Shown: one piece after another, positions 52,801 through 55,951 of the stretch
How positions within the stretch are numbered: the stretch's first letter is position 1
Layout of the letters: every line of letters starts with the position of its first letter
Source of the DNA: Microthyrium microscopicum
Lineage: Eukaryota
Assembly: GCA_010405405.1 (NCBI GenBank)
Contig: MU004244.1
Span: forward strand, 251,895 to 315,894
Direction: 5' to 3'
Length of the DNA stretch: 64,000 nucleotides
Program-made: the position numbers and the translations under genes
The notes under the pieces: model-generated
What the model saw: the letters and a program-made list of their open reading frames with translations, nothing else
Told to the model about the DNA's origin: nothing
The model's database searches: none

Positions 52801-54370
52801 CAGAGTATGACACTCGCTCTTCGTAGAGCGCTCGAGCTGTAGCAGGATGGTCCAATATGTGTGTGACGAAGGTTATGAGTGTATTATACAACCCTCTGCG
52901 TGTGGATATATTTTCGATGGAATCGTTTCGTAGGAGTTCCGCTACCGTATCAAGTACTGCCGATCGGCGCAGCATTGCCATTAGAAACTCCGCGCCAGGC
53001 TGACAGTCATAATCTGTAGAGGATGTAATGCTTGGAAGGGCGTGTCCCAGAACTGTGAAAAGTCGATTTGGGCGATCATCCTTGCTGTTTACCGCTGTTG
53101 GATCATAAGCAGTCTGTGGTTGGCGACCGCGACGATGGTGTTCCCCATATCCAATACCTAATTTCAGTTTGGCCGACGATCCAGAGGCTCCAGATTTCTT
53201 AACAGTCTCAGAGGACCATGATTTGTCTTTTCGTTGTTCCGTGGTACAAAGCAAAGCCCAGATCATGAAGACACGGCTCTCATCACAATGATATTCCAAG
53301 GTCATATCTTCAAAGGTCGTCGAATTGTTAAGTGAGGGTGCAGCTCCGCAGCCCATGCACACTTCAAATTTGCAATTTCGACATACTATTGTTGATCGAA
53401 ACTTGTAATCCTTGAACCATGTCGTGCTGAGAGATCTGACGAACTGGCTAATGTCATGAATGACTGGTCGTTCGCACTTTGGACATCTACGCTTGTAGAT
53501 TTGCTGCCCGTAATTTTTGATCAGCTCGCAGTCTTGCTGAGATTGAGGTATGAGAGGCTGTGCTGAGCTGTCAAGAGCCATAGCATTGGCGGCATCATAC
53601 TCGGCATCACTTTCTAATTGTAGCAACTTGGCGAGCTCGTGGTCTTTTGATGTCATGTCGATACCAGGAATGGTGTCGGGGTTATAAGATTCATTCGAAG
53701 ACTGACGATCGAGTCGAGTTGCCGCGTCCATAGCCTGGTTAAACTCCTCGTCGTTCTTGAACACATCTTTGTTCCATTCCGAAGACCATTCAGAATTCTC
53801 AAGCTTTTGCTTCTTAGTTGAGGAACTTGAGGATTCTGCCAATGGAGGCTCCGGTTCGGTCTGAGAGTCTAGCATTTCCTGGAGCTGCACCGCGTATTGA
53901 TAATCCTCCTCAATGGAAGTACTCATCGAGCTGTGCTCGCTATTCACGGAGGCGATGGAAGATTTTGGTAATCCCAGATTGAATGTCGTAGGCTCGGGCT
54001 CTGGGGAGGAATCGATAGTGAGATCAACATAGACCTTAGGCTTGGGATCGGATCTAACGACCGCTGGAATCGAAGAATTTCCACCGGGTGTAGCGGGTGT
54101 TGGAGATTTGTGTAAAGATTTGGCGGATGCTGTGTCATTCGGGTGTGTTTGCGTCATGAATTCTTCTTCCTGGGATTTGTTAGTGCGGTGAAAGAAAAGC
54201 CCACCGCGCTTCATGGATGCCATCAAGTGCGCTGGGAGCCATAACGCGCTTTCGTCAAGACGTACCGACATGATGGTTGACTTGGAGCCAACGGTTTCTG
54301 TGCTTGGAGTCCAAGGTGGACCACTATTGTTACTATTGGAGAGCTTCCGCTTCAAATTGCCATTAGCCAT
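49898..54370 (-). CDS. Large ubiquitin-conjugating (E2) enzyme, BIRC6/UBE2Z/UBE2O-type UBC domain, about 1458 aa; probable 96-nt intron 54265-54170
   Basis: [51 protein letters not shown], with catalytic Cys at 52093-52091. The first ATG is at 54370; the ORF-track TTG start lies inside a 5'UTR intron. Confidence 0.88.
   Translation of the reverse strand: [1490 protein letters not shown]
54200..54244 (-). repeat. Intronic 45-nt hairpin motif, copy 2 (in intron 54265-54170)
   Basis: TTATGGCTCCCAGCGCACTTGATGGCATCCATGAAGCGCGGTGGG; 38/45 identical to copy 1. Confidence 0.85.
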
Positions 54371-54513
54371 ATCTGACAGTACCTCAGGCTTGTCTGGCAG
54401 ATTGGCGACAAAATATCGCAGGCTCTGAACTAATCTGTTAGTGAAGACTACCAAAATGTGGTATCAAACCCAGAAATGCGATGAAAAAGTAAATGACCAT
54501 TTGGGTGCAAAGT

Positions 54514-54558
54514 CCCATCGCGCTTCATGGTAGCCATAGATTGCGATGGGAGCCATAA
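54514..54558 (-). repeat. Intronic 45-nt hairpin motif, copy 1 (in 5'UTR intron 54607-54430)
   Basis: TTATGGCTCCCATCGCAATCTATGGCTACCATGAAGCGCGATGGG; outer stem CCCATCGC/GCGATGGG, inner stem ATGG/CCAT. Confidence 0.85.
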
Positions 54559-55951
54559 GATGGAATGGTGAAAAGGTGAGATTGATAAAAATGGGACATT
54601 TGCGTACCAAAGTAAGCTCAACAGGCCTGAAAGAGCTGTTCGAGACGAGTTTCGATGTCGTGTCAAGCGTGCAACAACTATATCATGGCTGTTGACGTGC
54701 CAGTAACGGATGATAAATGGCGCAGGCACGGTTTCCAAGGACGTCGAGAGGTGTTCAAAAGAAGTACTGGAGATTTCAAAGTGGGATGACTGACCGGATT
54801 TGGTGACAAGCGGATGAATAGGCTGAACCGGAGTTGGCAGTGGGCAAAGTTGAAGGCGGCTTCTGGCTACCCAGTGAGGGACTGACGTTCAGCAAGGTTG
54901 AATGGGGTGCTGCTAAAGTGAGAGATCAAGTCTGCGGTATTAAGATTGAGTATCGAAGAATAAATTAGTGGGAGGTTGATTAAAGAGCGGGCGGTTGGAG
55001 GATTTGATGAAGATGAGTCTCAGAGGATTGGTTTGCTTGCTTGCTGGCTGTCTCATGGGGCGATACGGTAGGCAGGCTGCAGTTGGCAGGTGCAGGAGGG
55101 GTGTCACTTCCTCAAGCTGCGATCAATGCTGGTAGCTACTACCTGTTATCAAGGTAAAGTAGCTAATGAGGCAGACTTGAGGTGCAAGATCAATTATAGA
55201 AAGCAGCATTCGAGAGGGTTGGGAGGATCACCAAGTGGAGAAGGCCAGCGCATAATAGAGATGCTATCAGGATGGATCACAGATGAGGTTAAGAGCATGA
55301 GGGGTCGCAACCGAATCACAGACCAGTCAGTTCCAGATCAGGCTGAACTGATCCAACCTTATTATGCACTTGTTACGCTGTCAACCTTGGGGGTTTTCTG
55401 CTTTTATCAGAGAATTAATAACAGCTTGAAAACTCATCCCAATGTTTATGTATCTTGACTCCCAACGCATTCAATAAGAAATCGAGCGTTTCATGCACTT
55501 GATGGGAAACACAGTCCATAGTAATAAAGCGTAGCAGATGGTAGACATCACACTTGATGGTGGCGTGCTGATGATTTGTCGTCTGGTTGACTGCCTCAGA
55601 TATTAACAATAGAACAAAATACCGTAGTAGGTACAATTTTAGGTATTCAGTTTTTACGAAAGAGTGATGGCTATCATCGTCGTTGAGGGGATGGCCTTCC
55701 ATTTATTCTACGAAGCATGATCCTGGTCATCCTGGTCATTGGTCGTAGCTCATCGAAGTCCGGGAAGACTAGCCCATAAAAGCTAGCTGCATGTTCGCGC
55801 CTGCCTGACGTGCCGGGCACTCAGGCTAAAACGTCATCCCTGCAACTTTAAACATTGACCGCGGGTGTAAACAAAACAATCGGAAACAGACACTTTGTGA
55901 TATTTCTCCATCGCGAACCCATACTGACCCCACAGCATTCCAACAATAAAC

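Follow-up and report, generated by a model that had tools for sequence, protein, structure and literature searches.

The 64,000-nucleotide stretch of Microthyrium microscopicum DNA analysed here (contig MU004244.1, positions 251,895 to 315,894; the whole of it is called the window, and positions below are counted within it) carries on its minus strand a large E2 gene in which two successive introns contain copies of one hairpin-forming motif. Both introns are spliced, their cores are related, and the genome has further copies of the core, oriented alike with respect to a CTAAC downstream of them. We consider it probable that introns 1 and 2 are members of a low-copy family of sequence-related, introner-like (sister) introns. 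They would then be ordinary, efficiently removed spliceosomal introns derived from one ancestral intron sequence, with other family members in other genes of the same genome, and the 45-50-nt hairpin would be the best-preserved core of the ancestral unit. The copies may have arisen by intron multiplication, whether by reverse splicing or by another introner-type mechanism, and would since have decayed through substitutions, insertions and deletions.

The splicing of both introns was read from public sequencing data. Seven public runs contain this DNA, four of them from a possible source sample, and runs X5, X3, X6 and X7 were compared with the window. Run X5 contains 0.69 of the sampled window words and was labelled 'RNA?' as a guess, no run being recorded as RNA; X6 and X7 yielded small identical pieces only. 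One X5 contig (record 6, 5397 nt, no differences from the window) covers positions 53400-54168, 54265-54424 and 54608-55061. It skips exactly 96 nt (54170-54265) and 183 nt (54425-54607), both with GT..AG ends, and its joints run from 54168/54169 to 54265/54266 and from 54424 to 54608. Because two exact GT..AG skips occur in a contig of mRNA length, X5 was treated as RNA-derived. In the DNA run X3, one 20,269-nt contig passes through both introns unspliced, and the joint 54424/54608 is absent there. Both host segments are spliceosomal introns, and the RNA-like contig shows only the fully spliced form, with both cleanly out. The original prediction, made from the window alone, had named spliced junctions as a check on both introns, and these are what X5 displays. 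It had also placed intron 2 (54170-54265) and the donor of intron 1 (54607) correctly. Its acceptor for intron 1, a TAG at 54432-54430 that would make the intron 178 nt long, has to be replaced: the RNA-like contig shows a CAG at 54427-54425, five bases beyond, and an intron of 183 nt. The gene is laid out as follows.

54608 to 55061, minus strand: exon 1 of the 5′ untranslated region (UTR) of the large E2 gene, 454 nt, taken from the RNA-like contig (X5 record 6) and joined there to 54424; it contains 2 upstream ATGs, and its 5′ end is merely the end of the contig.
54425 to 54607, minus strand: intron 1, in the 5′ UTR, 183 nt, with a GTACGC donor, a CACTAAC branch site at 54443-54437 and a CAG acceptor at 54427-54425.
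54509 to 54558, minus strand: motif copy 1 in its extended form of 50 nt (45-nt core 54514-54558), a predicted hairpin with stems CCCAUCGC/GCGAUGGG and AUGG/CCAU.
54266 to 54424, minus strand: exon 2, in which the final 54 nt of the 5′ UTR are followed by the ATG (54370-54368) and the first 35 codons; X5 record 6 covers 54265-54424.
54170 to 54265, minus strand: intron 2, between codons, 96 nt, with a GTACGT donor, CACTAAC at 54185-54179, a CAG acceptor at 54172-54170 and no in-frame stop.
54195 to 54244, minus strand: motif copy 2 in its extended form of 50 nt (45-nt core 54200-54244), the same predicted hairpin with a G.G mismatch in the outer stem.
49898 to 54169, minus strand: exon 3, the remaining E2 coding sequence to the TAG stop, a continuous open reading frame (ORF); the protein has about 1458 amino acids after splicing.

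The two motif cores (54558-54514 and 54244-54200, minus strand) are identical at 38 of 45 positions without gaps; reading and aligning the minus strand reproduced the original prediction on this point. When the pair is extended to 50 nt, identity is 82% by the repeat search and 84% by BLASTN. The copies start 314 nt apart in one gene and form the sole dispersed repeat of the 64-kb window (BLASTN self-comparison, E up to 1e-3). A degenerate pattern written from both copies matched twice in the window, against a mean of 0.00 in 100 dinucleotide shuffles. The exons flanking introns 1 and 2 had been called dissimilar, and neither the repeat search nor the BLASTN self-comparison found similarity between them above chance. 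No third copy was found in the window: an ungapped scan (at least 29/45) returned the two copies and their own antisense palindromic matches, and among 22 matches to covariance model R1 with E up to 10, none but those of the two copies and their antisense fell below 0.01.

In a Smith-Waterman scan of the window, the best scores outside the motif were 33 (59461-59680) and 29 (63781-63940), with a null maximum of 25 over 2128 shuffles. The higher-scoring segment was considered as a further copy, and was judged a chance match: it is the antisense strand of coding sequence in the neighbouring SMC gene. The score of 29 belongs to 63896-63922 on the minus strand, a weak gapped likeness to the 5′ half and inner stem of copy 1 (81% over 27 nt, BLAST E 3.8) in surroundings without an evident gene; it could be a degenerate intergenic copy or chance. 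Both motif copies translate to LWLP..MA.MKR.G in one frame. A cryptic coding repeat was nonetheless rejected, since both segments are spliced out and the shared peptide is a by-product of the 84% DNA identity.

Further copies were present in run X3. The match is to 54209-54242 with 4 differences in record 2 (a contig of 1979 nt, depth 1041), to 54504-54556 with 9 in record 3 (6499 nt, depth 1071), and to 54532-54562 with 3 in record 4, a contig of 31 nt (depth 950). A fifth record, of depth 2, is probably a sequencing error. Because the depths of records 2, 3 and 4 equal that of the window's own X3 contig (1019), we take them as single-copy loci elsewhere in the genome. There are thus at least two, and probably three, further single-copy loci, with 83-90% identity over 31-53 nt, a lower bound that counts matches of at least 80% likeness only. 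The original prediction had named many dispersed copies outside introns as an observation that would speak against it. Copies of that kind were not found, those detected being few and intronic in appearance; yet the motif is clearly not private to the E2 gene.

The surroundings of these copies were read from the 30-letter loose ends of records 2 and 3. After the match, in the sense of the motif, record 2 has GCTAAC, then 13 nt with TTTTCAG at their end, then GT, which reads as a branch site followed by a 3′ splice site. Record 2 and intron 2 have the 9-mer CTAACAAAT in common, and its counterpart in intron 1 is CTAACAGAT. The match in record 2 stops at motif position 36 and passes straight into the branch site. 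Since the 3′ arm of the hairpin is missing, this copy cannot form the outer stem. Record 3 has GGCTAAC 22-28 nt downstream of its match, again in the sense of the motif; by our own arithmetic, CTAAC is expected in about 2.5% of random 30-mers. The core lies between a GTACGY donor and a CTAACARAT branch region shared by three or more of the four copies whose flanks are readable.

Likeness between introns 1 and 2 may extend beyond the core. In alignments by MAFFT and by a global method in which gap extension is cheap, intron 2 has 75 of its 96 nt on identical letters of intron 1, with four gaps. What aligns is the GTACG donor, the core, a TTTCAYCG block and CACTAACARAT. The CTAACARAT portion, which lies outside the core, is common to intron 2, intron 1 and record 2. 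The cores of the pair have diverged by about 16%.

Both motif copies are predicted to fold alike, as had been proposed, into an 8-bp outer stem (copy 2 has one pair broken) and an inner stem, AUGG/CCAU, that closes on a loop of 3 nt. The minimum free energies, each compared with 200 shuffles, are −17.2 kcal/mol for the 45 nt of copy 1 (z −2.69) and −21.2 kcal/mol for the 45 nt of copy 2 (z −3.03). For the host introns they are −36.5 kcal/mol (intron 1 in its 178-nt version, z −2.24) and −29.0 kcal/mol (intron 2, 96 nt, z −1.83). Eleven of the 12 pairs never vary between the copies. The remaining one is broken, with both sides changed (columns 13/41, U-A to G.G), and compensatory change was found at 0 of 12 pairs in these two full sequences, a number with which a conservation test is almost powerless. 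The seven differences between the copies fall mostly in loops (five, against two in the 24 paired positions), and, like the stems, the 8-nt leader and the GAA linker, both unpaired, do not vary; here too the original description was accurate. Recent common descent would, however, leave the leader and linker unchanged whether or not the structure is under selection. No sign of selection on the hairpin structure was seen: there is no covariation, and the one varying pair is broken. The motif is also nearly a DNA palindrome, so that covariance model R1 scores its antisense strand at 25.2 and 23.9 bits. Searching Rfam with 53900-54900 (cmscan, E up to 10) gave nothing on the motif strand; the sole match was a chance microRNA on the other strand, at 16 bits against a gathering score of 80. 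The motif had been said to lack the consensus of the thiamine pyrophosphate (TPP) riboswitch, and no riboswitch or other family was matched. ARAGORN likewise found 0 genes that would indicate a tRNA-like origin.

Retention of either intron would alter the message. Intron 1 contains 6 ATGs, so that the original prediction was right that its retention adds upstream ATGs, but the spliced 5′ leader, of 508 nt, already has 2. The upstream ORFs in the spliced leader are one of 38 codons, starting 6 nt from the contig end, and one of 2 codons. Translation confirmed that intron 2, at 96 nt and stop-free, would insert 32 residues in frame if retained. The minus-strand ORF that retains it encodes 1490 residues, with the UQ_con domain (Pfam PF00179) at residues 677-802 (E 5.5e-26).

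In its conserved part, the E2 protein is at best 42-43% identical to its homologues, which are fungal large UBC proteins. Named homologues, at 34-39%, are mostly from Dothideomycetes, and also from the lichen-forming Peltula (7997 candidates scored, 1290 proteins at E up to 1e-20). For the N-terminal 560 residues, the protein search returned one distant match; as this sole match is 29% identical, the N-terminus appears to be without close orthologues. Metagenome scans gave 36 pattern matches with protein residues 300-860, of which 0 were confirmed, and 0 loci with the motif pattern.

Two further observations concern the gene and its surroundings. Past the TAG stop (49900-49898), the E2 frame remains open for 126 more codons (window 49517-49900, minus strand), ending with 11 prolines in a row, then LV and a stop. 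We calculate the chance of such an open stretch at well below 1%. The extension had no Pfam match, and against 121 homologues it gave low-complexity proline matches only, among the best 40 matches. Readthrough, a recent nonsense change or plain chance are possible explanations. Upstream, the E2 gene (minus strand) and the SMC-type chromosome-maintenance gene (plus strand, ORF 56067-59288, named from a Protein Atlas look-up and from reading the ORF) are divergent, with about 1 kb (55061-56067) between the end of the E2 contig and the SMC ORF. This arrangement suggests a shared promoter region.

Several points weigh against descent of the two introns from a multiplied intron. The extra loci number two or three, while introner-like elements are defined by tens to hundreds of copies. 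The introns, at 96 and 183 nt, appear longer than regular ones by comparison with typical fungal introns (about 50-70 nt) and not with this genome's own intron distribution, for which the window provides a sample of five ORF pairs. The RNA label of X5 is a guess, and the case for its being RNA comes from the two exact GT..AG skips. The record-3 copy stands unspliced in a 669-nt X5 contig (depth 13, against 301 for the E2 mRNA) and occurs also in a 439-nt X6 contig; it may be exonic or lie in a retained intron. The placing of records 2 and 3 within genes is judged from 30-nt flanks only. Strong similarity between introns 1 and 2 is found only in the 50-nt core, and upstream of it, in the 15-43 nt beyond GTACG, there is no convincing alignment. 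Finally, all four alignable copies start at the same ATGGCT, a sharp 5′ boundary that also fits a short mobile unit inserted into pre-existing introns.

Such a unit, a short palindromic DNA element or transposon fragment that entered unrelated introns independently, where insertion is tolerated, is in our estimate rather unlikely, though it would account for the common edge and for the confinement of the match to about 34-53 nt. The near-palindromic DNA, with its antisense matches to the covariance model, also suits it, and repetitive elements inside regular introns mimic high-copy introns in three fungi, according to excerpts of PMC3609843. On the other side, no target-site duplication was seen at either copy by eye on the minus strand, and every copy with readable flanks has one orientation relative to the downstream CTAAC. 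The sharing of CTAACARAT outside the core by intron 1, intron 2 and record 2, and the almost complete matching of intron 2 within intron 1, likewise argue for related introns and not for related insertions. A purely local duplication within the E2 gene, with no wider family and no function, would suit two copies 314 nt apart, but the flanking exons are not duplicated. It is moreover contradicted by the motif's presence, between other flanks, in at least two other single-copy contigs (unless assembly artefacts account for records 2 and 3), and we hold it to be extremely unlikely.

The hairpin might be bound by a protein or ligand and govern a splicing 'regulon' over a small set of genes, controlling removal of the intron 1 rich in upstream ATGs and of the in-frame intron 2. 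The core is indeed better kept than the remainder of both introns, most changes fall outside the paired positions, the hairpins are more stable than shuffles (z −2.7 and −3.0), the motif has the sense orientation at several loci, and retention would have the consequences described above. We nevertheless think this quite improbable: 0 of 12 pairs are compensatory, the single differing pair is broken, and unpaired parts are as invariant as stems. The record-2 copy, which passes from the inner stem into the branch site, has no 3′ arm; no Rfam family matched; and the RNA-like contig holds only the fully spliced form, whose leader has upstream ATGs already. An intron-encoded small RNA, either like a small nucleolar RNA (snoRNA) or a small hairpin RNA, with paralogues in successive host introns, is very improbable. 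Fungal host genes commonly carry paralogous small RNAs in consecutive introns, and the hairpins are stable. Yet, at E up to 10, Rfam had nothing for the motif strand, inspection of both introns by eye revealed no C/D or H/ACA box pairs, intron 2 leaves about 75 nt from donor to branch site, and a 37-nt hairpin is too short for a Dicer substrate. No RNA-like contig covered the intron bodies of the E2 gene, a weak point because contigs cannot show absence.

The most ambitious interpretation would make the hairpin a selected, sense-oriented intronic RNA element in a handful of genes. It would serve either as the propagation module of an undescribed introner family in a poorly sampled fungal lineage, or as the binding site for a factor that would coordinate the splicing of these introns, among them the leader intron rich in upstream ATGs and the in-frame 96-nt intron. 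We regard this as distinctly unlikely. The original prediction had announced an undescribed cis-regulatory RNA, and that claim is unsupported, there being no Rfam family and no covariation, a record-2 copy without the 3′ arm, and clean removal of the introns. Of its two suggested origins, the introner-like relic fits the extra copies with CTAAC in the same sense, whereas no evidence emerged for a responsive splicing element.

If introns 1 and 2 do belong to a multiplied family, they would add one more documented case of fungal intron multiplication, in a lineage that, for the E2 gene, is far from its nearest sequenced relatives (42-43% identity). Two related introns would stand side by side and could be dated against each other, with cores about 16% diverged. 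Half-decayed low-copy families are a proposed intermediate between active introner-like elements and ordinary introns, and a census of this one across the genome could help to show at what rate newly gained introns become unrecognisable. No new regulatory mechanism would follow unless the hairpin proved conserved or condition-responsive.

Among known RNA elements, the fungal TPP riboswitch, which controls alternative splicing of 5′ introns, is likewise a structured RNA in a 5′-leader intron with upstream ATGs. Here, in contrast, no curated riboswitch aptamer model of Rfam was matched in 53900-54900 at E up to 10, an aptamer would need to be far larger than this hairpin, a second copy lies in an intron of the coding region, and further copies lie at other loci. 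Assignment to intron-encoded snoRNAs found no footing either, with no Rfam match and no box pairs by eye.

The published intron systems offer closer parallels; what is said of them here draws on excerpts of the cited papers. In yeast, stems that shorten the distance from donor to branchpoint help long introns (PMC2536676), and a stem between donor and branch site could do the same in the E2 gene. Any present role of the hairpin would most likely be this generic one of shortening the distance. About 38 nt would be looped out, bringing the distance between donor and branch site nearer to that of a short fungal intron; the effective length of intron 2 would fall from 96 to about 58 nt, and no sensing of a ligand or protein would be needed. 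The sister (stw)introns of Hypoxylaceae are also proliferated introns of similar sequence, with internal symmetry and no flanking target duplications (PMC8469720). They have terminal inverted repeats of 45-55 nt, whereas the E2 introns have a short internal hairpin (8 + 4 bp) and no nested intron.

The closest resemblance is to the duplicated introns of fungi, for which excerpts of PMC3609843 give three classes: duplications within the same gene, low-copy introns in unrelated genes, and high-copy introner-like elements. The last are described there as spliceosomal introns in many near-identical copies, about twice the length of ordinary introns and with lower folding energy, whose structures show compensatory mutations and which decay in sequence and length until they are indistinguishable from regular introns. 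The introner-like elements of Dothideomycetes (van der Burgt et al. 2012, as reported in PMC3609843 and PMC4457414) share several features with the E2 introns. They are canonical, truly spliced introns with copies in more than one gene, and both E2 introns have a canonical donor, branch site and acceptor and are actually spliced. They too have a stable predicted hairpin and differ among copies by substitutions and in length; they exceed the usual short fungal intron in length, as the E2 introns appear to do. Two copies may also be near neighbours within a gene: PMC4457414 reports four genes, each with a pair of introner-like elements 145-626 bp apart, compared with 314 nt between starts here. 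The differences are these: tens to hundreds of copies as against 4-5 detected here, near-identity over the whole intron as against 82-90% over 31-53 nt, and compensatory mutations as against none seen in two full sequences. The host appears distant from the species with described introner-like elements (best E2 homologues 42-43%), and the families are compared by description only.

With the same-gene and low-copy classes of PMC3609843, as these are outlined in the excerpts, the E2 introns have in common that similar introns occur in one gene without duplication of the exons, and that a few copies occur at other loci. The exon flanks of introns 1 and 2 are unrelated, and the extra loci have different flanks again. 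Introns of those classes have the length and folding energy of ordinary introns, whereas the E2 introns look over-long and their cores fold better than shuffles. Low-copy introns have themselves been interpreted as possibly degenerated introner-like elements (PMC3609843). The intron pair of the E2 gene fits the same-gene plus low-copy description, and looks like a partly decayed introner-like family.

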